Counted from the stretch's first letter, positions 23,043-43,949 are shown. The stretch: DNA of 64,000 nt from Parcubacteria bacterium C7867-008 (GCA_001189215.1 LFCR01000006.1:840-64839), one strand, 5' to 3'. Translations and numbers: made by a program. The notes: generated from the sequence alone by a model not told the origin.

Positions 23043-25058
<2,016 letters not shown>

Positions 25059-25070
25059 TAGAGTACCCGC

Positions 25071-26787: not shown

Positions 26788-26791
26788 GTGC

Positions 26792-27403: not shown

Positions 27404-27474
27404 GTCACTCTTGCGTATTCAATAAAACGCCGTAGAATAGGGCGATAACGGTGCCGTGGCAACGTTTTACTAAT

Positions 27475-27545
27475 AGCGGGGTAGAGGAGTGGTACCTCGG
27501 GAGGCTCATAACCTCCAGACGCCGGTTCAATTCCGGCCCCCGCAA
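27475..27545 (+). tRNA. tRNA-Met (anticodon CAU). A1:A72 is unpaired, so it could be an initiator-type or lysidine-modified Ile2 tRNA.
   Basis: Cloverleaf: acceptor AGCGGGG/CCCCGCA, U8, D-stem GAGG/CCTC, anticodon stem GGAGG/CCTCC with loop CU-CAU-AA, T-arm GCCGG-TTCAATT-CCGGC. No encoded CCA. Confidence 0.7.
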
Positions 27546-27550
27546 CACGA

Positions 27551-28114: not shown

Positions 28115-28184
28115 GTCCAGGGAGCCTTAGTGTGCTGTAGGATCAAATACTGTGGCAACATTGCCAACAAGTTATACTCACTCC

Positions 28185-28508
28185 ATGAAGTTACGAATAG
28201 TGGTATTGGTCATAATTCTGGGCATACTTCCATTTCTATACTTGAATTATATTCAGGCACCAGTGCCTGCTGATAGAATGAAGGATATGAGCTCCACTGA
28301 GAATGCAAAACAAATAGGAATAGAAACTCTAAAGGTACATGGGTACGATTGGGAGAAGTACGAGCTAGTAAGTGGACCCACTTATTTTCCCGAAGGAACT
28401 GGCTATGTGATGACCTTTGAAATCCCAAAAACTCTCGATACAGCAGTGATCATGAGTGTGGATGCCAACACTGGAAAGGTACTCATTTTTGAACCCAAAG
28501 GCGCTTAA
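28185..28508 (+). CDS. PepSY-domain small membrane-anchored protein (putative)
   Basis: TM anchor, then AKQIGIETLKVHGYDWEKYELVSG...VMTFEI...VIMSVDANTGKVLIFEPKG, which matches the PepSY pattern (..VDAnTGkvl..e). Confidence 0.45.
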   Translation: MKLRIVVLVIILGILPFLYLNYIQAPVPADRMKDMSSTENAKQIGIETLKVHGYDWEKYELVSGPTYFPEGTGYVMTFEIPKTLDTAVIMSVDANTGKVLIFEPKGA

Positions 28509-28567
28509 TTTCGCAGAAAACGACAATATCATCGTAATGTGAAGACAATGATAAACTCTTTTAATAA

Positions 28568-29704
28568 ATGGACTACGTACGGGTACTAGATGAGATATTC
28601 TCACAATTTACAGGCCCGAAGTTTTCAATTCGGTTTTGGAATGGAAAGGAGAATGAATATGGGAATGGATCAGAAAGCGCATTTACATTAGTTATTAATA
28701 GCAAGGCGGTTGTTCGCCGGTTTATAACCCAGGGTGCTATTGGATTTGGTGAATCCTATATGGACGGCAGTCTCCGTGTTGAAGGAGACCTCGAAGCGTA
28801 TCTTCGATTACGACACCAGTTTAAACATGTGCGCCGAACTTGGCGCCTTGTGTGTGCGACTCTTATCGCACTAGTCACAAGTCCCTTTGATCGTAAAAAA
28901 CAAATAGCACAGCATTACGATCTGGGTAATGAGTTCTTTGGCATGATCCTTGATGATGAGACGATGTCGTATTCGGCAGCAAAGTATGAAGGTACAGAAA
29001 CATTAGGTGAAGCACAAAAAAGCAAACTCTCCTATATATCTGATCTACTTACGCTGCCAGAGCATGCAGAGATTCTCGATCTTGGTTCAGGATGGGGAGG
29101 GTTCGCTACATTCGCTGCGAAGAATAAGAAATGGAACATTCTTGGATACACCTTAAGCAACGCACAACTTACGTATTGCCGTGAACTGATGAGGAAAGAG
29201 AAATTAGAAGATAGCGTCACGTTTGAATACCACGACATGTTAGGCCATCTTTCTCAGAAGCAATTCGATGCTGTTGTTGCAATAGAATCTATTGAACATG
29301 TGGGGAAGGGTAGGATAACGCGTTTCCTTACAGAAGTTGCCCAAGTGCTTAAACCAGGTGGATCACTATATATACAAACCACGGGAAGATATATTGCACG
29401 CGATGTTGACCCATGGACTCTTAAGTATGTGTTCCCAGGCGGGTATCTTCCGTCAAAGGATCAGCTTCTTAGCGCAGCTGCAACAGCAGGATTAACCGTG
29501 GAGGTTTTCCAAGATGATACTGAAGACTATATTCGAACTATGACTGCCTGGATTGAGCAGCTTGAGGCACGCCGGTCTGAAATCGAACACATGTTTAATC
29601 CAGCCTTTTATCGTCTCTGGGAACTATGGATGCACGGCGCAAAGGTAGCCTTTGAAGAGAATTCTATGAGTTTGTTCCGTATCTTGCTAAAACGTCCTAT
29701 GTAA
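28568..29704 (+). CDS. cfa: Cyclopropane-fatty-acyl-phospholipid synthase family SAM-dependent methyltransferase
   Basis: HYDLGNEFF, SAM motif I ILDLGSGWGGFATFAA, FDAVVAIESIEHVG and a C-terminal region typical of the CFA/mycolic-acid cyclopropane synthase family. Confidence 0.7.
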   Translation: MDYVRVLDEIFSQFTGPKFSIRFWNGKENEYGNGSESAFTLVINSKAVVRRFITQGAIGFGESYMDGSLRVEGDLEAYLRLRHQFKHVRRTWRLVCATLIALVTSPFDRKKQIAQHYDLGNEFFGMILDDETMSYSAAKYEGTETLGEAQKSKLSYISDLLTLPEHAEILDLGSGWGGFATFAAKNKKWNILGYTLSNAQLTYCRELMRKEKLEDSVTFEYHDMLGHLSQKQFDAVVAIESIEHVGKGRITRFLTEVAQVLKPGGSLYIQTTGRYIARDVDPWTLKYVFPGGYLPSKDQLLSAAATAGLTVEVFQDDTEDYIRTMTAWIEQLEARRSEIEHMFNPAFYRLWELWMHGAKVAFEENSMSLFRILLKRPM

Positions 29705-29758
29705 TAGGGTGGGGATAGATGAATTCACCTTTCTGTTGCGTAGTATTGTGAAGGTACT

Positions 29759-30844
29759 ATGAACCCACAGGAACCACTGCCATATATCCAGAAAGAACTT
29801 GCTGCTGGCGCTACAAAAGAAACCATTGAAGCCAACCTTCTTACTGAAGGGTGGTCTCCGGAAGTGATACAACAAGCATTCGTCACGATGCAGTCGTTAC
29901 CGACAGCACCACTAAGCACTGTTCCTGCGGAAATAATGCCAAAACCAAAGGAGGTACGGATCTTCGAATGGCTACTCTATGTTGGCTTTTTCTTTGAATT
30001 CCTAGCTAGCATGTCCAAGTACCTAGTACTAGTTGATACTAAAGACTTTGCTTCAACTGGAATTCTGTTTGCAGCTATGCCTGCGGGTATTTGGTTAGTT
30101 GTGCAGATTGCTTTTGCTTCTATAGCAATACGAAAGAAAATAAATTGGATGCGAATAGTAATTCTTATCCTATTTATGATTGGTTCAGTACAGACGATCG
30201 TTTTATTTGCACAAATCCTAATGGGGGGCTACGCGCAACGTACTATTGGTGGGTTAGGGATTGTCTATCCACTACTAGGTATTGCTGCGATCGCGATCCT
30301 TGGCGTTGCATTCCTATATGGTTTTTCAAAGACTTCAAATGATTGGTTTAGGGTCGCGGCTAATGTTCAGTTATTGGTAGGGGGCAAGAATGTGCTTTGG
30401 AAGAAAGGTATTCCACGATTAAACTTGATCCTACTGTTCATTTCCGCACTCTTAGTGTTTGGGCTTGATTTGTACATTCTCGTGTCTAGTGGTGGTGGTT
30501 TCAGTGGTTTCGGAGGACTCCTCCCGTTCTGGCTAGAGATGTTGGCTGCGTTTGTAGTGAATGCCGGCTTTGTACTTTATGAGAATTACAAACTTGCCCC
30601 AGGATTTGAAAAGACAACGTCGCCACTCGACAATCAAATTGCATCTCTAATCTTTATAAGGCATATTGCAGTCCTCCTTAACAGTGTGCCGGTAATACAA
30701 TTGTTCGGTGGTGCAGCAATTGTATTTGGCGGAATACCGTACCTAATATGCTATGTGATTTTTGTTCACAAGCGGAACAAAATTACAGACGCTCAGAATA
30801 GCTTGCTCACTTCTCCCATCACTAACTCAGCACCTGCTACATAA
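29759..30844 (+). CDS. Hypothetical polytopic membrane protein (soluble N-domain plus at least 8 TM helices)
   Basis: Hydropathy pattern only. Confidence 0.35.
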   Translation: MNPQEPLPYIQKELAAGATKETIEANLLTEGWSPEVIQQAFVTMQSLPTAPLSTVPAEIMPKPKEVRIFEWLLYVGFFFEFLASMSKYLVLVDTKDFASTGILFAAMPAGIWLVVQIAFASIAIRKKINWMRIVILILFMIGSVQTIVLFAQILMGGYAQRTIGGLGIVYPLLGIAAIAILGVAFLYGFSKTSNDWFRVAANVQLLVGGKNVLWKKGIPRLNLILLFISALLVFGLDLYILVSSGGGFSGFGGLLPFWLEMLAAFVVNAGFVLYENYKLAPGFEKTTSPLDNQIASLIFIRHIAVLLNSVPVIQLFGGAAIVFGGIPYLICYVIFVHKRNKITDAQNSLLTSPITNSAPAT

Positions 30845-31479
30845 TTAGTAGTGGTGTAAGAAGACAGTAGAGAGGATTCAATTGGTTTGCCATAAGTAAC
30901 CAGTATCTTAGGTCGTACCCGAAAGAATTGCTTGATGGTAATTCCCTCAAGTCCTTTGATTGATACTGGCACTATTTGAGCTCTAGTACTTTGAGAAAGG
31001 TATACAACACCTCCTTTGGGTTTTTGATCCGTTCCTTTCAGTACGATTCCTCCCATAGGGAAAATACCCACGCTTCCGCCACTCTCTAGAATTTGAATAT
31101 GGTGACGAAGTGCCTCTTCGTAATTATGTAAACCAGTGTATGCGGGATATGCACCAAGCATCTTAAACAACAGTCCACCATATACTAGATTACGTAGACC
31201 TTTCCCGTACTGTCCCTTCACTCGTGATACGTAAAAGAGAGGGAGATGTCGTGAGAAGAAGGGAATGCTAGCAACAATAAGTAACGGATCCAGTTCCGAG
31301 ACATGATTACTGGCAATGATTATTGGCCCTTTTGAGATTTGTAGATTCTCGATGCCTTTGACCTGTAGAGAACCAAACCATGAGAATAGTATCCGGAGCG
31401 GAAGCCAGGCAATACGCTGTAATAAGCTCGGGAAGAAGCTTTTTGGCTTTGGTTCTGGACCGGTTGTGCACAACACCAT
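30793..31479 (-). CDS. plsC: 1-acyl-sn-glycerol-3-phosphate acyltransferase (PlsC family)
   Basis: Acyltransferase HX4D motif IIASNHVSELDP, plus FPMGG and PVSIKG blocks. Confidence 0.65.
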   Translation of the reverse strand: MVLCTTGPEPKPKSFFPSLLQRIAWLPLRILFSWFGSLQVKGIENLQISKGPIIIASNHVSELDPLLIVASIPFFSRHLPLFYVSRVKGQYGKGLRNLVYGGLLFKMLGAYPAYTGLHNYEEALRHHIQILESGGSVGIFPMGGIVLKGTDQKPKGGVVYLSQSTRAQIVPVSIKGLEGITIKQFFRVRPKILVTYGKPIESSLLSSYTTTNYVAGAELVMGEVSKLF

Positions 31480-31542
31480 ATTGCAGATAATACTACCGTA
31501 TAATCTTTACATAGTGCATTTTTTATTTAATAAATTTCCCGT

Positions 31543-32205
31543 ATGAATCTCATGGTCATAGTTTTCTATGTACAGAACGTCCTCGCATCACTTCTCCTAG
31601 GTGGCAAATTTGCCATTCGCCGTGATCCAGTTTCGAAGAATTTCGGTATCGCTCTCTTGTTTGATGCAATCGCATTCGCTATTTGGTCTGCAGCAGTCAT
31701 CCTTAAGCCAGAAGCAATCCAAGAGTACATCTCATTCGGTACCATGGCCTTTGTGGTATCGCTATTCTTCCTGCTCGCATCTGGAGTTCAGCAGTTCCAG
31801 AAGAGTGCTCGAACAACCACACTTGTTATAGGTGCAATTGTTGGAATCGGTATTTTCTTCCTTGGGGGGCTTACCTCGTATCCGTCTCTTCCAGGATTCT
31901 CGCCTGAAGGATTCTTCTTCTTCAATGTGCATCCACTTCTACAAGCACTCTATGTGTTTGCCTTCATTATTGCTGCAATCCCAGCAATCGAAGCAATTTC
32001 ATCTAAGTTCCGTGGTAAATTCGCAACACTTATCCGTTATGGATTTATCCTTGAACTTGCAGGCGGTATTCTATTGATTACGTCAGTAAGTACAATGGCA
32101 AGTGCCGCAGCACTTTATCTCATTGGATGGGTGATTGGCATTGTGTACTTCGCACTTTGGACGACCATTCTATTCAACCGCAGTATTTGGGCAGAGGGTA
32201 ACTAA
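31543..32205 (+). CDS. Hypothetical polytopic membrane protein
   Basis: 6 predicted TM helices. No motif. Confidence 0.35.
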   Translation: MNLMVIVFYVQNVLASLLLGGKFAIRRDPVSKNFGIALLFDAIAFAIWSAAVILKPEAIQEYISFGTMAFVVSLFFLLASGVQQFQKSARTTTLVIGAIVGIGIFFLGGLTSYPSLPGFSPEGFFFFNVHPLLQALYVFAFIIAAIPAIEAISSKFRGKFATLIRYGFILELAGGILLITSVSTMASAAALYLIGWVIGIVYFALWTTILFNRSIWAEGN

Positions 32206-32265
32206 AACCATAGCTACTTTCTCGTTTCTTCTGCTCTACGATAGAGTAAGGACAACGCCTTACCT

Positions 32266-33216
32266 ATGAATCTATTGCTCACCGGAATCACCGGAAACGT
32301 GGGTCACGAAGTTGCTCTTGAACTCGACCGGCGTTCAATACATATCACCCCTCTTGTTAGAAAGGGCAGACAAGATCTCTCAGTTGGACCACTTCACTTT
32401 AATGAAGTGGTCCTTGCTGATCTGTTAAGTGATGACGATATTCAAATCATGGGAACTATAGATTGCATCATTCACTGCGCAGGTGCTGTGCATTTTCGAG
32501 ATGCAGGCACCAAAAATCAGGAAATGATGAATCGAATCGTGTCTCTAGCAAAGAAGTTAGACGTGCCAGTGTATTTCGCTAGTACTGCTTTTGTTTATAG
32601 ACCTGAAGGATCTTCCTTAATACCATCAAACAGTTACGAAGAAGACAAACTAAAGGCTGAAGAGATTCTAATAGAATCAGGTGTTGAGTATTGCATCTTA
32701 CGTCCTTCAGTCCTCGTCGGAAGCACTGCTACTGGTGCACTTCAAAACTACAGTGGGTACTATCAGATTGTAAAAGCATTCCTCGCTGCGGCTGAAGTTG
32801 CAAAGAAGCAGGGACGTACACTTAAGTTTCCTAAAGCGCAGGGCTTCTCACCCATACTTCCTATTGATCAAGCAGCTGAGTATCTTGTCTCATCAGCAGT
32901 AGAAGGAAGGAGAGGAATTGAATACATCACTAACTCAAACCCTCCTTCAACAGATTGGGTTCTCACCGAGACGTTAGAATTCTTTTCCATACAGGAGACC
33001 GTCGTTGGTATTGATTGTTCCTTTGAACAGTTCAGTACACGTACCCATACCGAAGAAGAGGCAACGTTATTCCATTTTATAGAAAACTTCAGTCCGTATT
33101 GGGCTTTGGACTATACTTTCCCACAATCCCAAATAATCGAGAACCTAATCAATCACGAGTACATGGTTAAGACATTAGAACGGTTTAGTGCAGATAATGA
33201 TATTGTCTATGCGTAA
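32266..33216 (+). CDS. NAD(P)-binding extended-SDR / NAD_binding_4-type reductase or epimerase
   Basis: N-terminal LLTGITGNVGHEV (GxxGxxG), an active-site YxxxK (SYEEDK), and IHCAGAVHF. First gene of a coupled seven-gene operon. Confidence 0.6.
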   Translation: MNLLLTGITGNVGHEVALELDRRSIHITPLVRKGRQDLSVGPLHFNEVVLADLLSDDDIQIMGTIDCIIHCAGAVHFRDAGTKNQEMMNRIVSLAKKLDVPVYFASTAFVYRPEGSSLIPSNSYEEDKLKAEEILIESGVEYCILRPSVLVGSTATGALQNYSGYYQIVKAFLAAAEVAKKQGRTLKFPKAQGFSPILPIDQAAEYLVSSAVEGRRGIEYITNSNPPSTDWVLTETLEFFSIQETVVGIDCSFEQFSTRTHTEEEATLFHFIENFSPYWALDYTFPQSQIIENLINHEYMVKTLERFSADNDIVYA

Positions 33217-34288
33217 TGATCGCATTAGCTACAGTCAGTGCTGGGAGGATCCTGAAGTACTTCAGGCGGCACTCATGGTTACTTCCGGAGATTCAGTCTT
33301 ATCTATTAGTTCGGGAGGAGATAATACACTGGCGCTTCTTTCAAAGGGACCAAAAAGAGTGGTGTCTATTGATCTCAACCCTGCACAGAACTATTTGCTT
33401 GAACTTAAACATGCTGCAGCAAGGCAGCTTTCATATGCGGAATATCTAGAATTTCTAGGGGTACGAGAATCAACGCAACGAGTTGATATATATAAAACCA
33501 TCAGCTCAAGTCTTTCAGCAGAAGCAGTAGTGTGGTGGGGAACGCACACCAACCTCATTAGAAACGGCATTATTCACTCAGGACGATTCGAGAAGTTCGT
33601 GCGATTCTTTGCTCGGTATGTGTTGCCATACATCCATTCACGAAAGACCATTACCTCCTTGCTTTCTTCCTCAGAGATTGAAGCTCAGAAGGAGTTCTAC
33701 GAGACAAAGTGGAATACGGCTCTTTGGAGACTCTTCTTCAGGATCGCATCAAGTCGTTTTCTGTTGGGTCGTGCGCGTCAACCCATAATGTTTACTCAAG
33801 CAGACACAGGGGGTGTTGCAGAAATATACCGACAGCGACTTGAACGACATCTACGTACTAAAACGGTGCGTGGTAATTTCTTTCTTGAGTACAACCTTAC
33901 CGGCAATTATGTACATGGATTACCACCGTACCTTGAAGAGAACTGTTATCAGTCTTTGAGAAAGCAGGACAAGGACTCTCTCTGCATTGTTTCTGATACG
34001 GTACTCGAATACTTTCGCTCTACCCCTGATACAACATTCTCTGCATACAATCTCTCAGACATATTTGAAGCGCTATCTGATTCTGAGCATGAATCTATGT
34101 GGCAGGAGATAGTTCGTACTGCAAAGCCAGGCGCGCGGATCGCATACTGGACTAATCTGGTACCACGAACTATTCCTATAACTGTTGCAGCTTCAGTCAC
34201 TGATGAGCACCTGTTTGCAGAGGACCTCCATGCAAAGGATCGTGTGTTTTTCTACGACACCTTTAAAGTTCACACTATTGTGAAATGA
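33209..34288 (+). CDS. DUF3419-family protein, BtaA-like (S-adenosylmethionine:diacylglycerol 3-amino-3-carboxypropyltransferase family)
   Basis: The N-terminal block ISYSQCWEDPEVLQAALMVTSGDSVLSISSGGDNTLALLSKGPKRVVSIDLNPAQNYLLELK matches my recollection of the DUF3419/BtaA N-terminal signature. The ATG at 33209 overlaps the upstream stop by 8 nt. Confidence 0.5.
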   Translation: MRNDRISYSQCWEDPEVLQAALMVTSGDSVLSISSGGDNTLALLSKGPKRVVSIDLNPAQNYLLELKHAAARQLSYAEYLEFLGVRESTQRVDIYKTISSSLSAEAVVWWGTHTNLIRNGIIHSGRFEKFVRFFARYVLPYIHSRKTITSLLSSSEIEAQKEFYETKWNTALWRLFFRIASSRFLLGRARQPIMFTQADTGGVAEIYRQRLERHLRTKTVRGNFFLEYNLTGNYVHGLPPYLEENCYQSLRKQDKDSLCIVSDTVLEYFRSTPDTTFSAYNLSDIFEALSDSEHESMWQEIVRTAKPGARIAYWTNLVPRTIPITVAASVTDEHLFAEDLHAKDRVFFYDTFKVHTIVK

Positions 34289-35169
34289 AACTAAATCTCC
34301 TAAAAAGAATACGAACATATCAGAAAGAGCGGTTCCCACTAGTGGTACTGCTCCTCAGTCTCGTACCCGCAATTCTTAGTTCTGGTGCAGTGGTTGGGGG
34401 AGTGGTGCACCTGGTTCCTCTACTCTGTGCCGTTGTTGTTTCAGTTGCATATTTAGCGCACATTCGAATCATTGATGAACAGCGCGACTATCTCCATGAC
34501 AATGAATACCACAAGACACGTCCTATTCAGGCAGGGGTGATAACGCTATCTGAGCTTCGTACGATAGATCTAGGTATTGTCGTACTAATTCTGGCAGTCT
34601 CTTTTTCGTTAGGACTAATTCCACTGATTACTTCGCTAGTGTTAATTGCGTATTCATACCTTGCCGGTAGGGAATTCTTCTTGGGTGAGAGGTTGCGATC
34701 TCATTTCTTTCTGTATAACAGCGTTAATCTGTTGCAGATGGTATTGATGCAGGTGTTGGTGTATGCCATGTTCGGATTATCAACACTACCTACTGCGCTT
34801 ATAGTACTACACTTCCTTTTCACCACCTCAGGAACACTCATCTTTGAGTTCCTACGAAAGGTAAAAATTCCTGGTGAAGATGGAACCGGCAAGGACACGT
34901 ATACCTGGTATGTCCCTTTTGGGAGAGCACTCTGGATATACTTCCTCCTTTTCTTGGTGACGGTATCACTCTTCTTCCTGCTTATTTTACATACTCAAAT
35001 AAATCAGTATTGGTGGATGTGGATAGGGATTATTGAGGTTTGTTCTGCTCTATTTTGGACGATCCTACACAGTACGCAAAAGACGCATAAGACAGAACAG
35101 GCCTTGCAAGGCTCCTTTCTCCTTAATTATGCGATTCTCAATATGATCATTTACTTTGCTATCATCTAG
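34285..35169 (+). CDS. UbiA-superfamily membrane prenyl/alkyl-transferase-like protein
   Basis: 8 TM helices. IIDEQRDYLHDNEYHKTRPIQAGVITLSE resembles the UbiA motif NDxxDxxxD...RPlxsG, with Ile replacing Asn. 4-nt overlap upstream. Confidence 0.45.
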   Translation: MKLNLLKRIRTYQKERFPLVVLLLSLVPAILSSGAVVGGVVHLVPLLCAVVVSVAYLAHIRIIDEQRDYLHDNEYHKTRPIQAGVITLSELRTIDLGIVVLILAVSFSLGLIPLITSLVLIAYSYLAGREFFLGERLRSHFFLYNSVNLLQMVLMQVLVYAMFGLSTLPTALIVLHFLFTTSGTLIFEFLRKVKIPGEDGTGKDTYTWYVPFGRALWIYFLLFLVTVSLFFLLILHTQINQYWWMWIGIIEVCSALFWTILHSTQKTHKTEQALQGSFLLNYAILNMIIYFAII

Positions 35170-35171
35170 GC

Positions 35172-37442
35172 ATGCGTGCCGGCGGGAAAGCAGATTCACT
35201 CAAGAAAATTAGAAGCGCTGGACTTAATGTCCCACCGTTTATTGTCTGTGGTCCAACATGGTCTTTAGATACGATACTCACTACCGTTCAGAAAGAACTG
35301 CCTGAAGTACAGTATTTTGCCGTTCGGTCTTCTGGTGCTCAGGAGGATTCAAAGAAGCAATCATTCGCTGGGCAATTCTATTCTGCAGTTGGTGTCTCGT
35401 TTTCAGATATATCGAATGAAGTTAGTAACGTGCGCACATCCTTTGGTGAAATGGAGGGCTCGGTCATTATTCAAGAGTTTATCGCTAGTGATTATGCTGG
35501 TGTTTTATTTACGAGAGTTGGTGGAGATGTATCAGTGCTTAATGCTATAGAAGGACTATGTCTGCCAGTGGTTAATGGTGAGTCTTGTGATGAATACATT
35601 TGTGCAGAGGACGGTACGCTACAGAGCGTAACGATTCCAGAAGAGAAAGAGGCTATGCGTTTCCGGGAGGGGAGGATGGTACACGAAAAACGATCAGGGC
35701 ACGCGCTTACTTCAGAACAGATTTCAAAGGTGCTTGTGATTGGCAGGCAACTGGAGCAGCTCTTTGGGTGCCCGCAAGATATTGAGTGGTGTTTCCGTGG
35801 AGAAGAACTCTATATATTGCAGTCTCGTCCTATAACTAAAGGATTCATAATTGAACAAGAGATTCATTTTGATAGTGCAAATATCGCTGAAAGTTATTCA
35901 GGTATTGTTCTCCCACTCACGTGTACATTTGCTAGCACGGTATACGAACAGGTATATAAAGACTTGCTGATTAAGTCTGGTATTTCAAGCCGGAAGGTTG
36001 AACAGCACTCAACCATATTTGAGAATCTGCTCGCGTTCTCCTACGGAAGGATGTACTACAACATGAATAATTGGTACCGGATGGCAGAATTTGCTCCCGG
36101 GTATAAGAGAAACAAACAGAACTTTGAGCGAATGATAACCAGCTCAATTCAGGAAGACGTGAGCAGGGCAATTCGTCCTCACTGGAGCTTTATAATTCTG
36201 TACCCTTGGATTATTGCCTGGAAGATCATGGGCTTTGACTATACGTGCTGGCAATTCAAAACAAAGGTTACTAAACATCTCCGTGATCTTCGAGTTCAAG
36301 ACTTTGAGAAACTTGAGTACGCATCCTGCATACAGCTATTTGATTCTATTAATCAGAATCTACTCAGACGCTGGTATGTAACGGTGGAGAATGATTTCTT
36401 TGTTATGACGTATTTAGGAATACTCGGAAAGCTCCTTAATGAAAAAGAACTCCAAGAATCAATTATCTTTCCAAGCAAGGCGACAGAACAGATTCAAGCT
36501 CTTGTAGAACTAAGTAACACGTTAAGCGGAAACAGTGAGGCGTGGAAGGCAGTTGAATCTAACGACCCAAATAGTTTTGGATCGGTACTGCAGGCTAACC
36601 CTGAACTTCAGAAGTCTCTTGATGAATATCTTGATATCTTTGGCGGTAGATTTGCGAATGAATTGAAACTTGAATCGGTTGATGTTGATGAGGATGTTAC
36701 CAGGTTGTTTGCCCTACTTAAAGCATATCGTACTCACGAGCTTAAAACAGAACAGCAAGCTCTAGCTACCCCTAAAAGTCTAATTGTGCGCATGGTGCTT
36801 TCCGTGTTTAAAAAGCATGCCGGTAGACGAGAAGAATTTCGGCTACTGCGTTCTAATACATTTGCGATGGCTCGGAAACTATTTAAACGGATGGGACATA
36901 TTCTTACTGAGGAGCGAGTTCTTTTAGATGAGAAAGATGTGTTTTATCTCCACCTTAGTGAACTCATGTCAGCTGAGGCACCATCCAACTATCATTTGAA
37001 AGATGTGGTTGCTAAACGTAAAGACGAGTACTCACAGTATGCAGATGTGCACCCACCTGCGTACTTTTCAAGTAGGGGAGGTAGGCCACCGGCAATGGAA
37101 ATACAGAATACAACTCAACCTAATGACAAAACGATATACGGTAAGCCAGCATCTCCAGGAATCGTTTCAGGCAAGGTGCGCGTCTTTGGTGACTTTCATA
37201 TCCCGAATGAAATTGATTTTGATATTCTCATAACGTCTCATACCGATCCTGGATGGACTCCACTCATTGCGCTGTCTAAAGGTCTCATTATCGAGCACGG
37301 AGGCGTGCTCTCGCATGCTTCTATTGTTGCTCGTGAGTTGGGTGTCCCTGCGGTGATTGGTATTAGCAATGCCATGCAGATCTTCAAGGATGGTCAGGAA
37401 GTGCGCATAGATGGATCTACTGGCAGTATTACCGTCCTATAG
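35172..37442 (+). CDS. PEP-utilizing phosphotransferase (PPDK-N-type ATP-grasp plus C-terminal phospho-His swivel domain), PEP-synthase/rifampicin-phosphotransferase-like
   Basis: N-terminal GGKADSLKKIRSAGLNVPPFIV (PPDK_N nucleotide-binding domain). The C-terminal TDPGWTPLIALSKGLIIEHGGVLSHASIVARELGVPAVIG carries the PEP-utilizer catalytic His motif. Confidence 0.7.
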   Translation: MRAGGKADSLKKIRSAGLNVPPFIVCGPTWSLDTILTTVQKELPEVQYFAVRSSGAQEDSKKQSFAGQFYSAVGVSFSDISNEVSNVRTSFGEMEGSVIIQEFIASDYAGVLFTRVGGDVSVLNAIEGLCLPVVNGESCDEYICAEDGTLQSVTIPEEKEAMRFREGRMVHEKRSGHALTSEQISKVLVIGRQLEQLFGCPQDIEWCFRGEELYILQSRPITKGFIIEQEIHFDSANIAESYSGIVLPLTCTFASTVYEQVYKDLLIKSGISSRKVEQHSTIFENLLAFSYGRMYYNMNNWYRMAEFAPGYKRNKQNFERMITSSIQEDVSRAIRPHWSFIILYPWIIAWKIMGFDYTCWQFKTKVTKHLRDLRVQDFEKLEYASCIQLFDSINQNLLRRWYVTVENDFFVMTYLGILGKLLNEKELQESIIFPSKATEQIQALVELSNTLSGNSEAWKAVESNDPNSFGSVLQANPELQKSLDEYLDIFGGRFANELKLESVDVDEDVTRLFALLKAYRTHELKTEQQALATPKSLIVRMVLSVFKKHAGRREEFRLLRSNTFAMARKLFKRMGHILTEERVLLDEKDVFYLHLSELMSAEAPSNYHLKDVVAKRKDEYSQYADVHPPAYFSSRGGRPPAMEIQNTTQPNDKTIYGKPASPGIVSGKVRVFGDFHIPNEIDFDILITSHTDPGWTPLIALSKGLIIEHGGVLSHASIVARELGVPAVIGISNAMQIFKDGQEVRIDGSTGSITVL

Positions 37443-37444
37443 CT

Positions 37445-38446
37445 ATGGAACTAAGAATGTACTCTCCTGACGATCCATCAGCATTCTTTGCACTACTTAC
37501 AAAGAAATATATCCAACATGAGAACTTCGAGTACTTCCTAAAGGATTCTGAGATTGCATATACATTCTGTACTCAAAGCACATCTATAACCTTTATTCCG
37601 ATTGCTGCATTTGAAGATGGTATATGTGTTGCACACATTGCACTCATACTTGATAGCAGACTTCCAAAAGGTGAGGCCTTCTTTGGCTTTCTCGAAGTAC
37701 CTAATGATGCATCCTGTTTTGATAAGCTCTGGGACGCTCTCCTTAGGGAATCTCAGCATCACGGCATAACTACGCTTAAAGGGCCCGTTAATGGTAGTAT
37801 CTGGCATCAGTATCGTTGTATAGAAGAAACAGATGGTTCGGAATTCTTCACTGCAGAACCGATAACAGAAACCTATTACTACCATCTGCTTACTGAGAAG
37901 CGTCCGAGTTCTGAAATACAGTATTTCTCTGCTTATCGCACTCGTTACAGCATGATTCTTACGCTCCTGGGTGCCGCATCATATACTCGTCTTTCTCTCA
38001 CCGGATTTTCCATTAAGGAAGCAACAGAGGTCAGTATTGAAGAAATGCGAACCATTGCAGACATATCAAAGAAGACGTTCCATTCAAATTGGGGCTATAC
38101 AGAACTAACAGAGCAAGAATTCCTACAACTCTATTCTCCTCAGAAACTGAATGCACATCTCAATAGTTTGTATCTTCTCTATAAAGGTGAGGCGATTATA
38201 GGATTCCTTAGTACAGCAAAAGAGAATGATTCAACATTAATTTGTAAGACGATTTGTATTGTACCCGAGTACCAAGGACAAGGGCTCGGAAATGCGCTTG
38301 CATACAAGTTACATCAAGATGCAGAAAATAATGGCATTACCAAAATTGTGTATGCCCTTATACGAGAAGGGAATGCCATAAAGAAATTTCCAAAAGAGCA
38401 CGCAGTTATCTTTCGTAAATACGCTGCATTTGAATTCACGCTATAA
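37445..38446 (+). CDS. GNAT-family N-acyltransferase (two-lobed)
   Basis: C-terminal acyl-CoA binding motif VPEYQGQGLGNALAYKL (Q/R-x-x-G-x-G/A). The N-terminal half is also GNAT-like in size. Confidence 0.55.
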   Translation: MELRMYSPDDPSAFFALLTKKYIQHENFEYFLKDSEIAYTFCTQSTSITFIPIAAFEDGICVAHIALILDSRLPKGEAFFGFLEVPNDASCFDKLWDALLRESQHHGITTLKGPVNGSIWHQYRCIEETDGSEFFTAEPITETYYYHLLTEKRPSSEIQYFSAYRTRYSMILTLLGAASYTRLSLTGFSIKEATEVSIEEMRTIADISKKTFHSNWGYTELTEQEFLQLYSPQKLNAHLNSLYLLYKGEAIIGFLSTAKENDSTLICKTICIVPEYQGQGLGNALAYKLHQDAENNGITKIVYALIREGNAIKKFPKEHAVIFRKYAAFEFTL

Positions 38447-38449
38447 CAT

Positions 38450-39067
38450 ATGGAACTTTTAGGACTTATTTTCGCTTCATCTATTTGCATCCTTATAACA
38501 GAAGTGTTGAAACGAAGGTTTTCTCTCCCTGCCTCAATAACAAGAAGGGTAGTGCATGTGCTAACAGCAGTAGTTGCAGCAGCAGCCCCGCTGTTTGTAT
38601 CTGAGAGGGAGATAATTATAGTAAGTCTCTTATTTGCTGCAGTCTTATGGTGGAGTCATTCACGTGGACTCCTCTCATCTATTCATTCTGTTGAGCGCAA
38701 GACATTCGGAGAAGTATGGCTCCCAATTGGTATAGCCATAACTGCTTTCTTGTTCCTCCCAAACTCAGTTGCCTCGTTCCAGTTTGGAGTACTTATCATG
38801 GGTATTTCAGACCCTATAGCAGGCTTCGTTGGAGAAACCCGAGGGAAGCGACGATTAGCATTTCTTGGATCAACTAAAAGTATTGAAGGATCAGCTGCTT
38901 TCTTTACTTCAAGTATGCTTCTCACAGCTCTCCTCATACCAGTATTTGGGTGCCATCTCCTTCTTATACCGTTACTGCTTACTATTCTAGAATTTGTACT
39001 GATCTTCGGATTAGATAATCTATTTCTCCCTATTGCAGGAGCTTTTCTTGCGCAGATGTTCCTTTGA
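38450..39067 (+). CDS. CTP_transf_1-superfamily membrane protein (dolichol/phytol-kinase or CDP-diglyceride-synthase-like)
   Basis: 6 TM helices. ISDPIAGFVGETRGKRR...GSTKSIEGSAAFF resembles the conserved K-T/S-x-EG block of the dolichol kinase / phytol kinase / CdsA family. Confidence 0.45.
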   Translation: MELLGLIFASSICILITEVLKRRFSLPASITRRVVHVLTAVVAAAAPLFVSEREIIIVSLLFAAVLWWSHSRGLLSSIHSVERKTFGEVWLPIGIAITAFLFLPNSVASFQFGVLIMGISDPIAGFVGETRGKRRLAFLGSTKSIEGSAAFFTSSMLLTALLIPVFGCHLLLIPLLLTILEFVLIFGLDNLFLPIAGAFLAQMFL

Positions 39068-39176
39068 CTGGTGGTGTAACGTATTACTGGCTTGCTGTTT
39101 AGATCCGAATATGGGGAAAGGAAACACGCATGAAGTTTACGTGATGCTACTATATACATAGTTCTGCACTCACCAC

Positions 39177-40211
39177 ATGAGAAGTGATATCTTTCTTTCG
39201 CGTCCGGGACCTCGAGTATCTTCGAGGTATTTAGTAATTCCCAACCGATATTCCTTCAAGTTGGTTCGTAGTGTCCGTCAGCCAAAGGAGGCGCCTGCAG
39301 TGTCTTCTGAGTTTGCTCCAGCAACTATCCGTGAATCTGTAGTTGCTGAAGTAGTAGCACAGGTTGTTCTAGATGCGGAAGTACGTGAAGTGGTACGTGT
39401 TCCAGGAAAAGGCAGCAAAAAGAATAAAAAGGAGGTTTCTGAACGAGTTGATGAGAGCAAACGACTATTCCTTCGTTTAGCTGGTATTGCAGGTCTCGGT
39501 GTAGTGGCATCAACGGTCCTCCCTAAAAATGCTCAGGCATATGTAATGGGAAGCTCACCAACCTCTGGAGTAGTGGGTCTAAAGAATGGATCTAATGTAC
39601 GTGTCGATCCTGCTACCGAAGGAGGTAACCTGGCTTCAATAAAGACCAATACAGATCCGCTTGTATCTTCTGGCGGAGGTGGGTATGTGCGCCAGGACTC
39701 TACCGCAACCATTGCAAAAGAGACGGGAGGTAATCTTGCCACAATAGCAGGAAAGGATTTTGCTACGGAAGCAACTCTCGCAGAGATTAAGGCACAAACT
39801 GACAAGTTCACCTTCAGTGGCAGTAACCTTCTTACGTCAGGTGGGGGAGGGGGCGGCGGTGCTGTTACGGTTAACGACACCACTGACACACAGATCAATC
39901 CAGCCACTGATGAGGGAGTCACGCTCTTACGTAGGCTTGTTAAGCAATCTGATTCGTTGGCGGTGGTGGATTCAGCACAGCGTCAGAAGGTAACCATCGA
40001 TTCAATCAGTGGATCACTCACTCTTGGTACGATAACAACCGTGGGTACAGTGACGGCAGTTACCACGGTTTCTACCGTAACCACCGTTGGTACCGTTACT
40101 TCTGCTACCAACCTGGTTGCTCTAGGAGGTGTTGATGGAAGATATCTACATATAGATACGGCGAGGAACATGTATGCTAATGGTATACGGAGCAATTTGG
40201 CATTCTCCTAA
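39177..40211 (+). CDS. Secreted Thr/Gly-rich repeat protein with internal twin-Arg-like (KR) signal
   Basis: ...SERVDESKRLFLRLAGIAGLGVVASTVLPKNAQA/Y has n-region KR-x-F-L-R, an h-region and AQA cleavage site, like a Tat signal. It lies about 95 codons into the ORF, so the true start is probably an internal GTG near 39.39-39.41 kb. Features include GGGGG linkers, repeated NLA(S/T)I motifs and a C-terminal (T-V-G)n tract. Confidence 0.4.
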   Translation: MRSDIFLSRPGPRVSSRYLVIPNRYSFKLVRSVRQPKEAPAVSSEFAPATIRESVVAEVVAQVVLDAEVREVVRVPGKGSKKNKKEVSERVDESKRLFLRLAGIAGLGVVASTVLPKNAQAYVMGSSPTSGVVGLKNGSNVRVDPATEGGNLASIKTNTDPLVSSGGGGYVRQDSTATIAKETGGNLATIAGKDFATEATLAEIKAQTDKFTFSGSNLLTSGGGGGGGAVTVNDTTDTQINPATDEGVTLLRRLVKQSDSLAVVDSAQRQKVTIDSISGSLTLGTITTVGTVTAVTTVSTVTTVGTVTSATNLVALGGVDGRYLHIDTARNMYANGIRSNLAFS

Positions 40212-40217
40212 TTCTGT

Positions 40218-43055
40218 ATGGCACTTACCAACAACCTTAAACCGCAAGTAGATCTCCCCGTCTGGGAGTGGTGTCGCTTTGCGCCTACGGCATCAGTGGC
40301 CTTGTCTGCATTCGCTACGGCTGATGATGGTAGTGCTCGACATATCTACTACATCTCTGCTTCAACCTTCTATCGCTATGATACGTATGCAGATTCTTGG
40401 CAGCAGCTTGCAACCCCTAACGTAGCACCGCTCACCACTCTCGCACTCAGGTACACCGGATATCGCGGGTACCATGGTCGAATTCTCAGTGCCGGCGCAA
40501 CAAGTGTTCAGATAGGTGGTCTTCGCGGGAACACCCTCAACGGAAAAACAATCAGAATACTCAGTGGCTCTGGTATCGGACAAGACCGTGTCCTTACTTC
40601 CACGGGTGAGACGGTACACGACATGGGGGTTATCACAGGAACTACCACACTCACCCTTGCTGACTCCACTAAGAAATGGAAATTCAATCAATGGTCTGGA
40701 TATACCGTTGGTATTACGTTCGGAACAGATGCCACACAGTATAAGAAGATCCTGTATAACGACACCACGACGCTCTATATAGGTGATGCAAACCTACAGC
40801 CTCATGATCCATGGAATAATCAGGCATTTGCTGCTGTGGCACCATATGCGGTACCAGTTACCACCGCCGGTTCGCAAGCGCACTATCAGATTCTTTCTAT
40901 GAGTTACTCGGTTGCTGCGTGGGACACTACACCTGATTATCGTTCGAACTACACAACGGCAACAGGTGGACTGTATCTCATTTCTTCTTCAGCATCAGCA
41001 CCTTTCTTTACTCTGCAGTACTACGACATCATTCATGATTCCTGGCAGACCAAGACGTGTAACCAAGGACTACTTGCAGCGGCATTGGGTACAGACTGTA
41101 CCTTTGAACGTTTGGCAAAAACGGGAACAGCCTTTCTAAGCTCGACCGCTACGGCGGGTGCCGCACGTACTCTTACTGATACGGTGCAGACTATGACAGT
41201 CGATAGATACTCGAATTATCGACTTCTCATTACAGGAGGTACAGGCGTGGGACAAAGTAGGAGAATAATTTGTAATACAGCAACTGTCTTCACACTAAAC
41301 AAAGCCTGGGATACCAACCCAGACAACACTTCAACCTATGAAATATGGGGTGATTATGACAAAGCATTCCTCGCTGGAGGTGCAGCGGGTGCCATGTATC
41401 AATATTCCCCAAGCAACGATTTCTGGATGCAGGGTAGCAGTTTTGATGATGGTGTGGTTGCAAACATAGCCGTTAAGATGAATGGTTGGGAGGCATTAGG
41501 TGTAACAACTGGCGCCAGAATTGCAGCCGGTGTTACCGCCGTTAACGCAACACCAACAGCAGGCGGTACGGGTTATCTAGTAGGGGACATCCTGACTTGT
41601 TCTGTCGGTGGTACTGGTGCACGTGTGATTGTTACCGCAATTGCACCCACGGGTATTGTTTCGACAATAGAACTTGTGGCATCGGGTACGGTGACGGGCT
41701 TTACAACGGGTACTGGAAAGGCGACCACGGGTGGTACTGGATCAGGTTGTACGATTGAAATAACATCGATTGGTGCAACCTGTCTTATTACAACCGCATC
41801 AGCAAGCTGGTTTAAGACAGGAGATTCAGTAACATTCTCAGGATGTTCTGATGGTGCATACAATGCGGCACACACTATCCTTGGTGCAGGCTCAACCACC
41901 ACATTTGATGTTGCAACCTCTGCAGCAGGTTCTATGGCCGCATCTAACTCACAATCAACAACGGTTATTGTGGACCCAACGAAGAGCTGGACGGTAAACG
42001 AACATGTGGGTAAGCTTGTGCATCTCTCGGTTGCGGGTACTGCTCCTACCGCTCAGATTCGTTGGATAACGGCTAACACTGCAACCACCCTCACGGTGGC
42101 AACCATCGTTGCTGGTGTAAACGGAACATCGAAGTACGCTATCTATGACTCAAAGGTCTTTGGAACAGATAACCAGTTCAAGCCTGCTAACCAGCAGAAC
42201 TGGGGTCATGCATCTGGTGGTTCAACTACAACACTCGCAGACTCCTCGAAGAGTTGGGTTGTTAACTCTTGGGCAGGGTATAAGTTACGTATTGAGTCTG
42301 GAACTGGTTTTGCATCAGGAATAATCTCAATAACCTCCAATACTGCAACGACACTTACGTATACAACACAGTCATTCACACCAGATGCAACTACTCATTA
42401 CGAGATTGCGGATAGCTGGGGTCTAATGACAGCAGCATCAACAACAACGGTAACTGAGACAGCAACTAAAAACTGGACGGTGAACATGTGGGCAGGTAAG
42501 AGGATCCGTATTAGTGGGGGAACTTCTCCTGGACAAGAGGTCTCTATTACTTCAAATACTGCCACTGTCCTAACAACGGCAACATTAACGCTTCCTGATA
42601 CCACCTCAACGTATGCCATCTTGGGTATACCGGCCCGTGGTGCGGGTACACAGCTCTTATGGATCTGGGGGAATACCGATGCCACAACAAAAGGAAAGTA
42701 TGTTCTTTTGCCAAGAGGTGGCGCATCAAACAGCGCGGATCTTTACGATGTTACGACAGCACGTTGGTTATACGGTTACTTCTTCTCACCTCAAGCTGAA
42801 ACATTCACGACCGGTTCTATGTATGCGTATGACGGTGTGAATACTATATATATGCAGAAGGATGCAACAGGTAGGGTGATGGCGTATGACTTCTCAACAA
42901 ATGCAATCACAACACTAGGCACCATACCGTATGGTCACTCAACGGCGATAATAGGGAACCGCATGGAGATTATAGAAACAACAGACGGTCTGAAGTATTT
43001 GTACATGATGCGACACACAGGATCTGAAGTCTGGCGTATGTTGATATTCTTTTAA
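40218..43055 (+). CDS. Large (945 aa) Thr/Gly-rich protein with five copies of a ~50-aa K(S/N)W-x-VN-x-WAG-x7-GTG-x-GQ-x3-I-x-SNTAT-x-LT repeat
   Basis: Five repeat instances in the translation: TKKWKFNQWSGYTVGI..., SNYRLLITGGTGVGQSRRIICNTATVFTLN, TKSWTVNEHVGKLVHL...ANTATTLTVA, SKSWVVNSWAGYKLRIESGTGFASGIISITSNTATTLTYT, TKNWTVNMWAGKRIRISGGTSPGQEVSITSNTATVLTTA. I recognise no domain. Start 7 nt after the upstream stop. Confidence 0.5.
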   Translation: MALTNNLKPQVDLPVWEWCRFAPTASVALSAFATADDGSARHIYYISASTFYRYDTYADSWQQLATPNVAPLTTLALRYTGYRGYHGRILSAGATSVQIGGLRGNTLNGKTIRILSGSGIGQDRVLTSTGETVHDMGVITGTTTLTLADSTKKWKFNQWSGYTVGITFGTDATQYKKILYNDTTTLYIGDANLQPHDPWNNQAFAAVAPYAVPVTTAGSQAHYQILSMSYSVAAWDTTPDYRSNYTTATGGLYLISSSASAPFFTLQYYDIIHDSWQTKTCNQGLLAAALGTDCTFERLAKTGTAFLSSTATAGAARTLTDTVQTMTVDRYSNYRLLITGGTGVGQSRRIICNTATVFTLNKAWDTNPDNTSTYEIWGDYDKAFLAGGAAGAMYQYSPSNDFWMQGSSFDDGVVANIAVKMNGWEALGVTTGARIAAGVTAVNATPTAGGTGYLVGDILTCSVGGTGARVIVTAIAPTGIVSTIELVASGTVTGFTTGTGKATTGGTGSGCTIEITSIGATCLITTASASWFKTGDSVTFSGCSDGAYNAAHTILGAGSTTTFDVATSAAGSMAASNSQSTTVIVDPTKSWTVNEHVGKLVHLSVAGTAPTAQIRWITANTATTLTVATIVAGVNGTSKYAIYDSKVFGTDNQFKPANQQNWGHASGGSTTTLADSSKSWVVNSWAGYKLRIESGTGFASGIISITSNTATTLTYTTQSFTPDATTHYEIADSWGLMTAASTTTVTETATKNWTVNMWAGKRIRISGGTSPGQEVSITSNTATVLTTATLTLPDTTSTYAILGIPARGAGTQLLWIWGNTDATTKGKYVLLPRGGASNSADLYDVTTARWLYGYFFSPQAETFTTGSMYAYDGVNTIYMQKDATGRVMAYDFSTNAITTLGTIPYGHSTAIIGNRMEIIETTDGLKYLYMMRHTGSEVWRMLIFF

Positions 43056-43057
43056 TT

Positions 43058-43927: not shown

Positions 43928-43949
43928 CCTCTCGTGAGATACTTGGGCC

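Follow-up and report, generated by a model that had tools for sequence, protein, structure and literature searches.

The DNA analysed here is a 64,000-nt stretch of Parcubacteria bacterium C7867-008 (GCA_001189215.1, LFCR01000006.1:840-64839; the whole stretch is hereafter the window), and between positions 32266 and 39067 it contains six co-directional open reading frames (ORFs), all on the + strand. Their products are, in order, a short-chain dehydrogenase/reductase (SDR)-like protein, a DUF3419 protein of the family of the betaine-lipid enzyme BtaA, a UbiA-like membrane protein, a predicted ATP dikinase, a tandem GNAT protein and a polytopic membrane protein of 205 aa (Table 1). In many phyla the core genes (DUF3419, UbiA-like, dikinase and GNAT) are co-inherited with a gene of lipid-kinase type, some of them as fusions, and lie among lipid enzymes and exporters.

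The six genes are tightly coupled. With the DUF3419 start placed at ATG 33209, the junctions between them measure -8, -4, +2, +2 and +3 nt. The DUF3419 ORF opens at GTG 33188 and the best homologue alignment starts at ATG 33209, likely the true start; the 366-aa ORF has no exact database record and gene callers use later starts. An initial annotation of the region had described a coupled operon of seven genes, although its own list named six. The spacing that it gave, -8 to +3 nt, is reproduced and the genes form one unit, but the range holds only six ORFs; m220, a membrane protein gene located 60 nt upstream and outside the range, may be the seventh gene that was meant. A scan for transcription signals was uninformative, with promoter-like sites fewer than in shuffled sequences and terminator-like sites near expectation. 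The same block is present on a JGI contig and a Logan contig.

Protein families encoded by the operon

The DUF3419 protein matches PF11899 over its full length (E 1.7e-78, residues 11-361 against profile positions 8-382 of 385), as expected if it belongs with BtaA. Cluster-type DUF3419 proteins and canonical BtaA have in common an N-terminal WED, the SxGxN motif for binding S-adenosylmethionine (SAM) and the acidic residue D55, and Y8, W12, E13, D14, S35, G37, N39, D55, W110, W173, N223, P239, D284 and Y349 are invariant across both. Nevertheless, identity to the BtaA proteins of S. meliloti, R. leguminosarum and Chondrinema is 24-27%, phmmer gives 80-91 bits against canonical BtaA and more than 200 bits within the cluster type, and in a neighbour-joining tree the Rhizobium, Sinorhizobium and Chondrinema proteins fall outside the cluster-type clade. 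A btaB class I methyltransferase gene lies directly downstream of btaA in all three canonical loci (S. meliloti, R. leguminosarum and Chondrinema). In contrast, tblastn with three BtaB queries found no BtaB in the window, where the sole match was the generic SAM-binding site of an upstream cyclopropane fatty acid (CFA) synthase-like protein (E 6.6e-4), and none in 89 related loci except for one weak match (L073, E 4e-4). The family profile had no match in the PDB. On these comparisons, the DUF3419 protein is a BtaA-family enzyme and not a BtaA orthologue, and the BtaA-like label of the initial annotation stands for the family only. Likewise, the known BtaA/BtaB systems of Rhodobacter sphaeroides, Sinorhizobium meliloti and Agrobacterium resemble the present one in family and motifs, whereas their btaAB operons lack the dikinase, UbiA-like and GNAT genes to which cluster-type DUF3419 is linked.

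By analogy with BtaA, the DUF3419 protein likely transfers the aminocarboxypropyl group of SAM to a lipid oxygen. Two unrelated decarboxylase types adjoin DUF3419 in different variants of the cluster, one like phosphatidylserine decarboxylase (PSD) and the other a pyridoxal phosphate (PLP)-dependent Orn/DAP/Arg decarboxylase. On a Deefgea piscis plasmid (NZ_CP054144.1; L096, 4980-6466) a distantly related DUF3419 gene immediately precedes speD, the gene for SAM decarboxylase, and the pair adjoins genes for an iron-containing redox enzyme and a monooxygenase, which hints at an aminopropyl-transfer role for another DUF3419 branch. The adjacent decarboxylases and SpeD fit, rather than prove, aminocarboxypropyl or aminopropyl chemistry, and not methyl transfer. 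In microcin C biosynthesis, the SAM aminocarboxypropyl transferase activity of MccD/MccE works together with a decarboxylase and a GNAT. The cluster variants in which a PLP-dependent Orn/DAP/Arg or PSD-like decarboxylase adjoins DUF3419 are alike in this respect; however, the transferase families are unrelated, the microcin substrate is a peptidyl-nucleotide and the window operon has no decarboxylase. The comparison draws in part on the enzyme list of a preprint (bioRxiv 10.1101/2024.11.12.622736). The aminocarboxypropyl transferase of bursatellin was considered as a precedent for DUF3419 and rejected, as it is a homologue of isonocardicin synthase. Among the comparison sequences, CP090106.1 (L090), labelled S. 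meliloti pSymB, is 3.72 Mb long, which is chromosome-sized and not pSymB-sized; its btaA region matches in two pieces without a listed CDS, possibly through a frameshift or as a pseudogene.

The dikinase matches PPDK_N (PF01326, E 7.8e-27, profile positions 91-311 only) and PEP-utilizers (PF00391, E 6.5e-23), the two domains originally assigned to it, and a precomputed Rph_4th match is on record. It keeps the ATP-grasp motifs FAVRSS and QDIEWC..QSRPIT and the catalytic-His motif GGVLSHASIVARE, which aligns with GGLMTHGAVIARE of Listeria rifampin phosphotransferase (Rph); structures of the Listeria enzyme are the best PDB matches (5hv1-3 and 5fbs, E 1e-50). A Pfam scan found no phosphoenolpyruvate (PEP)/pyruvate-binding TIM-barrel domain in the protein, and the PEP synthase and PPDK models cover only its PPDK_N and mobile His domains, far below cut-off. 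Since the PEP/pyruvate domain is missing and the closest solved relative is Listeria Rph, the enzyme is predicted to be driven by ATP and not by PEP, contrary to what had been proposed. It would thus be an Rph/PigC-type ATP dikinase, in which a partial ATP-grasp is followed by a central and a C-terminal swivel-His domain. The same layout, with an Rph_4th central domain, is found in Rph and PigC/RedH, which are PpsA-like dikinases without a PEP-binding domain. The cluster dikinase differs from these in scoring far below every equivalog cut-off (Rph 211.8 against 999, PigC 170.4 against 1300 and RedH 162.2 against 1350; the best NCBIfam match, NF004881 at 452 bits, is also below cut-off) and, in the candidate phyla radiation (CPR), in its shortened ATP-grasp. 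Its substrate is probably lipidic. In one related locus (L011) the dikinase is seemingly split into two ORFs.

The UbiA-like call is upheld by homologues that exceed the PF01040 cut-off (58.7 bits in L070 and 47.8 bits in L040) and by the family profile, which finds M. jannaschii digeranylgeranylglyceryl phosphate (DGGGP) synthase (6m31, E 3.1e-10, query 39-289 against chain 35-278) and, at E 2.5e-3, chlorophyll synthase. The family invariants are R61, D64, E65, D68, D72, R79, P80, E188, R191, K192, T205 and Y206; those of the first Asp-rich motif, (N/D)DxxDxxxD followed by RP (R61 to P80), are kept in 91-100% of 59 members. These features point to a divergent UbiA-fold membrane transferase with archaeal DGGGP synthase as its closest solved relative.

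The SDR matches PF01370 (E 7.6e-13), PF07993 (NAD_binding_4, E 7.8e-10) and PF13460 (NAD_binding_10), in agreement with its first description as an NAD-binding reductase, and its translation contains TGxxGxxG and YxxxK motifs. A TIGR01746 thioester-reductase match (E 1.1e-07) lies far below cut-off, and the PDB returned generic NAD-binding matches only. We regard it as a predicted extended NAD(P)-dependent reductase with features like those of thioester reductases and fatty acyl reductases. The GNAT protein (PF00583, E 2.5e-10) has two GNAT folds in one chain, an MshD-like tandem repeat with the acetyl-CoA motif in the active C-domain; its family profile gave weak generic GNAT matches only in the PDB. 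The proposal that it is an acyl-CoA N-acyltransferase needs correction, as its nearest relatives are small-molecule N-acetyltransferases and not known long-chain N-acyltransferases. For the 205-aa protein, 4 of 41 homologues match PF01148 (best E 9e-5), the source databases label it phytol kinase or dolichol kinase, and the family profile found no match among PDB sequences. It may be a distant relative of the CTP-transferase family, which includes CdsA, phytol kinase and dolichol kinase.

Conservation and genomic context of the gene set

How widespread is this arrangement? In a scan of one genome per species, 433 genomes encode a cluster-type DUF3419 protein, and the best 80 of the 433 loci were fetched; a HMMER search of 1.84 billion representatives gave 548 DUF3419 clusters at E<=1e-30. 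Co-occurrence was determined with HMMs of the neighbourhood gene families on the 44 loci that have at least 7 kb on each side of DUF3419. The dikinase is present in 43 of these, the UbiA-like gene in 41, the GNAT gene in 40 and all three together in 39. The CTP-transferase-like gene occurs in 27 loci and a DAGK_cat-type kinase gene in 7, never both; the SDR gene in 18 and a hydroxymethylglutaryl (HMG)-CoA reductase gene in 10, again never both; and no locus combines an acyl-CoA ligase-like (AMP-binding) gene (15 loci) with a PSD-like gene (7 loci). By hhalign, the CTP-transferase-like and DAGK_cat families are unrelated, as are SDR and HMG-CoA reductase. Therefore, these exclusive pairs look like non-orthologous displacement at a lipid-kinase step and at a reductase step, and the mutual exclusion with DAGK_cat suggests a kinase role for the 205-aa protein.

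The arrangement is far beyond chance because it recurs in dozens of distant genomes. The nearest DUF3419 relatives are nearly all Patescibacteria, and the best 80 loci span Patescibacteria, Bacteroidales, Dehalococcoidia, Verrucomicrobiota, Planctomycetota, Ignavibacteria, Nitrospiraceae, Zixibacteria, WOR-3, Rickettsiales-labelled metagenome-assembled genomes (MAGs), DPANN archaea (L067, L081) and Gammaproteobacteria (Thiodiazotropha, Sedimenticolaceae). Complete clusters of the second type described below are found in cultured Brevibacillus laterosporus B9 and on a plasmid of Roseinatronobacter sp. S2 (L092, NZ_CP121116.1), for whose cluster genes RefSeq gives generic or hypothetical names only. 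They lie at about 463.5-474.7 kb of NZ_CP011076.1 in the former and at about 128.2-136.7 kb of the plasmid in the latter. The combination, for which the initial annotation knew no earlier example, is not unique to this genome but shared by many phyla and two cultured bacteria, and its co-conservation is borne out. Full-text literature searches aimed at the cluster gave no description of it. Roseinatronobacter sp. S2 is an isolate from Ney Springs, an alkaline spring; the organism of the window, a C7867 bin, presumably comes from The Cedars, also a hyperalkaline spring.

Three main gene orders can be distinguished. Type I (CPR, Bacteroidales) consists of [CFA synthase, h246, PlsC, m220, SDR], DUF3419, UbiA, (radical SAM), dikinase, GNAT and CTP-transferase-like genes. 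Type II runs HMG-CoA reductase, UbiA, dikinase, DUF3419, CTP-transferase-like, GNAT and AMP-ligase, and type III (HMG-CoA reductase or SDR), DAGK, UbiA, dikinase, GNAT, PSD-like, DUF3419, FtsX and ABC. Natural fusions join DUF3419 to the dikinase (P0364, 1336 aa), to GNAT (P0385), to a major facilitator superfamily (MFS) protein (P0355), to a PEMT/ICMT-like membrane methyltransferase (P0391, P0397) and to PEP-utilizers. The accessory genes related to lipids encode CFA synthase, PlsC, a DAGK-type kinase, a PSD-like protein and MMPL and FtsX/ABC exporters; in the variants, DAGK_cat, PSD-like, MMPL and FtsX/ABC were called from representative sequences read by eye and from gene orders, and in L097 Pfam annotation confirms DAGK_cat, MacB/FtsX and ABC. 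Chance juxtaposition is ruled out by co-conservation and these fusions.

Several further observations concern the variants. Locus L097 (7132-15367) represents a fourth cluster type, with a DAGK_cat kinase, a PEMT/ICMT-like::DUF3419 fusion, a 371-aa protein of unnamed family, a PLP-dependent Orn/DAP/Arg decarboxylase, a class II aldolase and a MacB/FtsX-ABC exporter; the dikinase, UbiA and GNAT genes are absent from it, and the contig also encodes Por_Secre_tail proteins. A class-I-type HMG-CoA reductase gene opens many type II and III clusters (L070, 5079-6365; L091, 3839-5302; L038, L064, L072). The protein matches PF00368 (E 5.9e-120) and TIGR00533 (E 2.6e-101, 339 bits against a cut-off of 442), no other mevalonate-pathway gene was seen near it, and it may be a 'lone' reductase whose physiological substrate is a different one. 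The CPR-type block also turns up in MAGs labelled Gammaproteobacteria, Bdellovibrionales and Rhabdochlamydiaceae; L016, L023, L025 and L026 keep the full CPR order, and the Rhabdochlamydiaceae contigs (L008/L009) have a variant order in which a 204-aa membrane gene separates UbiA from the dikinase. The DUF3419 proteins of these MAGs fall within the CPR clade, which suggests mis-binning, mislabelling or recent transfer.

Upstream of the operon, CPR contigs keep a constant order: CFA synthase, membrane protein, PlsC (opposite strand), membrane protein of about 215 aa, SDR and DUF3419, followed by UbiA-like, dikinase, GNAT and the 205-aa protein. In the window, the CFA-synthase-like protein has full-length matches to solved CFA synthases (7qos, E 7.6e-49, residues 56-376; 5z9o, 7.7e-46, 19-375; E. 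coli 6bqc, 1.6e-42, 33-376), and its gene keeps its position in 15 loci, including the CPR loci L004, L006, L010 and L014; it is a CPR add-on to the core. The PlsC protein contains NHVSELD, an H(X)4D (NHxxxxD) motif, its TIGR00530 match is below cut-off, and the gene is found at the equal position in 21 loci. Both enzymes had been noted just upstream of the operon, and both family assignments stand. Pfam and NCBIfam scans gave no match for the polytopic h246/h361 protein, whose homologues hold the equal position in 17 loci and are weakly conserved among CPR loci. The 3' ends of its gene and of the convergent PlsC gene overlap by 52 nt (30793-30844); in other CPR loci the counterpart is much shorter (215-246 aa), and the long C-terminal tail may be an ORF-calling artefact or a lineage-specific extension. 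The m220 gene lies directly upstream of SDR or DUF3419 in 25 loci. Family scans gave no match for m220 and hhalign no relation to the other cluster families; that it is the split-off C-terminal extension of long (about 440 aa) CTP-transferase-like proteins was rejected (hhalign probability 0.2%).

The ten-gene block formed by the upstream genes and the operon (window 28000-39000) has a G+C content of 0.41-0.445 per kb against 0.47-0.50 in the flanks (24000-28000 and 39000-44000) and begins about 0.5-1 kb downstream of a tRNA-Met gene (27475-27546). Given its low G+C and the tRNA-Met, it may be a horizontally acquired island. On its other side (39177-43927, +) lie genes for three consecutive proteins of 344, 945 and 289 aa, which have no Pfam family and a high content of Thr, Gly and Val, in places as runs such as TVTAVTTVSTVTTVGTVT, and then TatC and TatA. 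These three adjoin the lipid block only in this organism's own contigs and not in other CPR loci.

Table 1. Genes of the operon and of the adjoining upstream region (window positions).
Gene	Position	Strand	Product features
CFA-synthase-like methyltransferase	28568-29704	+	PF02353 E 4.3e-60; DUF7884 N-terminal domain
Polytopic membrane protein h246/h361	29759-30844	+	361 aa; translation rich in hydrophobic segments
PlsC-type lysophospholipid acyltransferase	30793-31479	-	PF01553 E 6.2e-13; divergent to operon
m220 multi-pass membrane protein	31543-32205	+	220 aa; directly upstream of operon
SDR	32266-33216	+	316 aa
DUF3419	33188/33209-34288	+	366/359 aa
UbiA-like	34285-35169	+	294 aa
Dikinase	35172-37442	+	756 aa
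Tandem GNAT	37445-38446	+	333 aa; pseudo-GNAT N-domain and active C-domain predicted
CTP-transferase-like membrane protein	38450-39067	+	205 aa; polytopic

A proposed lipid pathway and its alternatives

What could such a gene set make? A lipid or head-group pathway, as the initial annotation proposed, is the best reading of the membrane enzymes, the neighbours and the fusions. Some role in lipid metabolism, if the archaeal-style and salvage variants discussed below are counted in, is probable. The more specific scheme, in which the locus is the Parcubacteria form of a widespread operon for making or remodelling a membrane lipid whose polar head derives from SAM, has at best an even chance. In this scheme, the SDR would supply a lipid alcohol (prenol, alkanol or glycerolipid) where one is needed, a task that would fall elsewhere to HMG-CoA reductase with or without an acyl-CoA ligase. 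The CdsA/phytol-kinase-like 205-aa protein, or the unrelated DAGK-type kinase in other lineages, would phosphorylate the lipid alcohol, and the Rph-type dikinase would add a further phosphate by means of ATP and its swivel histidine. The DGGGP-synthase-like UbiA-fold enzyme would then move the activated chain onto a hydroxyl acceptor to form an ether bond. In the manner of BtaA, DUF3419 would attach the 3-amino-3-carboxypropyl group from SAM to a hydroxyl of the lipid, or alternatively to a phosphate oxygen, and the tandem GNAT would N-acetylate the new alpha-amine. In other lineages a decarboxylase would convert the aminocarboxypropyl to an aminopropyl group, and some may decarboxylate or methylate, instead or additionally. 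In CPR bacteria, PlsC and CFA synthase would re-acylate and cyclopropanate scavenged acyl lipids. The predicted product is an N-acetyl-homoserine-type glycerolipid, possibly ether-linked or prenylated, and not diacylglyceryl-trimethylhomoserine (DGTS). That this amounts to a new lipid class in many phyla, a glycerolipid bearing an N-acetylated SAM-derived 3-amino-3-carboxypropyl head or its decarboxylated aminopropyl form, is possible but doubtful.

Two lines of evidence bear on the chain-transferring steps. First, the best solved relative of the putative ether-forming transferase is DGGGP synthase (E 3e-10). Second, in plants and cyanobacteria a prenol kinase (VTE5/FOLK) is followed by a prenyl-phosphate kinase and a UbiA-type transferase (PMC9782597), and the proposed kinase, dikinase and UbiA-like steps would parallel this VTE5, VTE6 and UbiA-transferase salvage.

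A number of observations weigh against this interpretation. We infer the order of steps, the acceptor and the donor. The UbiA-like protein of the window itself scores 28.7 bits against PF01040, under the cut-off of 34.2, so that on this count the first family call did not stand. Its family has a degenerate second Asp-rich motif (E188-x-x-R191-K192...T205-Y206), in which the intervening acidic residues vary in position. Allylic diphosphates are the usual requirement of UbiA-fold enzymes, and in the cluster no gene was seen for a prenyl-diphosphate synthase or a GGGP (geranylgeranylglyceryl phosphate) synthase. CPR dikinases lack about the first 90 profile positions of the PPDK_N ATP-grasp, and a 530-aa CPR homologue (L006, 9959-11551) has no PPDK_N match. 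The tandem GNAT most resembles small-molecule N-acetyltransferases, whose members act on soluble amines. The 205-aa protein has no PF01148 match at E<=10, and its top structural match, TmCdsA, is weak (Foldseek E 0.5). Finally, variants exist whose P450, aminotransferase and MFS transporter make them look more like a specialised-metabolite cluster, and the type III clusters, with both a reductase and a decarboxylase, go beyond a simple linear scheme.

Of the other explanations, the one that survives best, while unlikely, is a small-molecule pathway. Its product, a SAM-derived amino-acid metabolite carrying prenyl and N-acetyl groups, would be phosphorylated for self-resistance or activation before export and might serve as an antibiotic, a signal or a factor in host interaction. 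Relatives of the dikinase do act on small hydrophobic molecules (Rph, and the prodigiosin ligases PigC and RedH) and relatives of the tandem GNAT on small amines; the variants with a P450, a class III aminotransferase and an MFS transporter or MFS fusion, together with one complete copy on a plasmid, point the same way. Set against this are the two or three core enzymes that are polytopic in the membrane and the company they keep: PlsC, CFA synthase, DAGK_cat, PSD-like, PEMT-like, MMPL and FtsX/ABC proteins. Moreover, CPR and DPANN genomes keep the cluster despite their extreme reduction, and dispensable secondary metabolism is rare in genomes of that kind.

It is quite unlikely that the operon serves prenol salvage, in which the 205-aa protein and the dikinase would regenerate a prenyl (di)phosphate from scavenged prenols for the UbiA-like enzyme. 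The salvage would feed carrier lipids or prenylated cofactors, with DUF3419 and GNAT decorating the carrier or acting on an unrelated substrate. The phytol kinase and dolichol kinase labels of the 205-aa protein, the VTE5/VTE6 precedent, the HMG-CoA reductase gene that adjoins the UbiA-like gene in types II and III and the dependence of CPR bacteria on scavenging all speak for it. Like the plant system (VTE5/FOLK, VTE6, VTE2/ChlG), the cluster combines a UbiA-fold transferase with a further phosphotransferase and with a small, polytopic and kinase-like member of the CTP-transferase family, but its second phosphotransferase is an Rph-type dikinase and not VTE6/COG1836, the kinase assignment is weak and the module is joined to an aminocarboxypropyl transferase and a GNAT. 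The tightest links, fusions included, are in fact among DUF3419, dikinase and GNAT, whereas the CTP-transferase-like kinase is present in 27 of the 44 loci and the DAGK-type kinase in 7. Salvage also leaves the decarboxylases, the PEMT-like fusion and the exporters unexplained.

Still less likely is an archaeal-style ether phospholipid, in which an isoprenoid ether would come from the DGGGP-synthase-like enzyme and a CDP-lipid from the CdsA/CarS-like protein, and DUF3419 would add homoserine in place of the serine-synthase step, the homoserine being decarboxylated in some lineages. This branch would account for DGGGP synthase as the closest solved relative of the UbiA-like family, for TmCdsA as the closest fold to the 205-aa protein, for the variants with a class-I-type HMG-CoA reductase and a PSD-like decarboxylase, and for the copies in the two DPANN archaea. 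However, a search of the conserved neighbours that was not exhaustive brought up no GGGP synthase, glycerol-1-phosphate dehydrogenase or CDP-alcohol phosphatidyltransferase, and the UbiA-like family has a degenerate second Asp-rich motif. The exchange of the CTP-transferase-like protein for a DAGK-type kinase argues for a kinase and not a cytidylyltransferase, and the lipids of the CPR fraction at Crystal Geyser are all acylglycerols.

Classical DGTS synthesis is very improbable because the DUF3419 protein lies outside the canonical BtaA clade and no BtaB accompanies it. Under this explanation, a true BtaA would make diacylglyceryl-homoserine from scavenged diacylglycerol, the CFA-synthase-like or another methyltransferase would trimethylate it and the rest of the operon would be incidental. 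The full-length PF11899 match, the catalytic-looking residues common to canonical BtaA and the field correlation of lyso-DGTS and related betaine lysolipids with Parcubacteria would agree with it, as would the fact that the CMAS fold includes plant N-methyltransferases, though the match is weak (6gkv, 4.8e-11). The CFA-synthase-like protein was considered as a hidden BtaB and rejected as the main explanation: it is a full-length CFA-synthase homologue and confined to the CPR-type block. DGTS synthesis would also leave unexplained why DUF3419 is almost universally linked to, and in cases fused with, dikinase, GNAT and UbiA-like genes.

Betaine-type lysolipids and significance of the cluster

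In the CPR-enriched <0.2 um filtrate of Crystal Geyser, lysolipids made up 31% of the intact polar lipids and were all betaine-headed (Probst et al. 2020, PMC7242380). Lyso-DGTS and the lyso forms of diacylglyceryl-hydroxymethyl-trimethyl-beta-alanine (lyso-DGTA) and diacylglyceryl-carboxyhydroxymethylcholine (lyso-DGCC) correlated with Parcubacteria, Kaiserbacteria and Falkowbacteria, no CPR genome there encoded any known lipid pathway in full, and the source of the betaine-type lysolipids was left unexplained (PMC7242380). A Parcubacteria contig from Crystal Geyser (L014, CG08_land_8_20_14_0_20_48_21) carries the full ten-gene block. By calculation, an acetyl group adds 42.011 Da and three methyl groups 42.047 Da, and the N-acetyl-homoserine ion (C9H18NO6+) would be found at m/z 236.113 against 236.149 for DGTS. 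An aminocarboxypropyl group would raise the mass of the lipid by 101.048 Da, and its N-acetylated form by 143.058 Da. A head group of the first kind would thus be nearly isobaric with DGTS, which is a lead and not evidence. If the proposed lipid pathway is correct, the block could be the unexplained source of the betaine-type lysolipids in CPR-enriched fractions.

The enzyme families are known, and what is new is their undescribed and widely conserved combination. The core is present in about 430 species-level genomes of many phyla and we found no published description of it, which makes it a sizeable gap in bacterial lipid biochemistry. The cluster also links poorly understood families, namely the non-BtaA DUF3419 proteins, the Rph-like dikinases and the lone HMG-CoA reductases, and the copies in Brevibacillus laterosporus B9 and Roseinatronobacter sp. 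S2 make genetics and lipidomics feasible. CPR bacteria, or Patescibacteria, are regarded as incapable of membrane lipid synthesis and reliant on their hosts. If the lipid reading is true, the cluster would be one of the very few lipid-building capacities that they have kept. The presence of the ten-gene block in such minimal genomes suggests an active rebuilding of scavenged lipids with a head group of their own, and bears on how these epibionts build their membranes and interact with their hosts.

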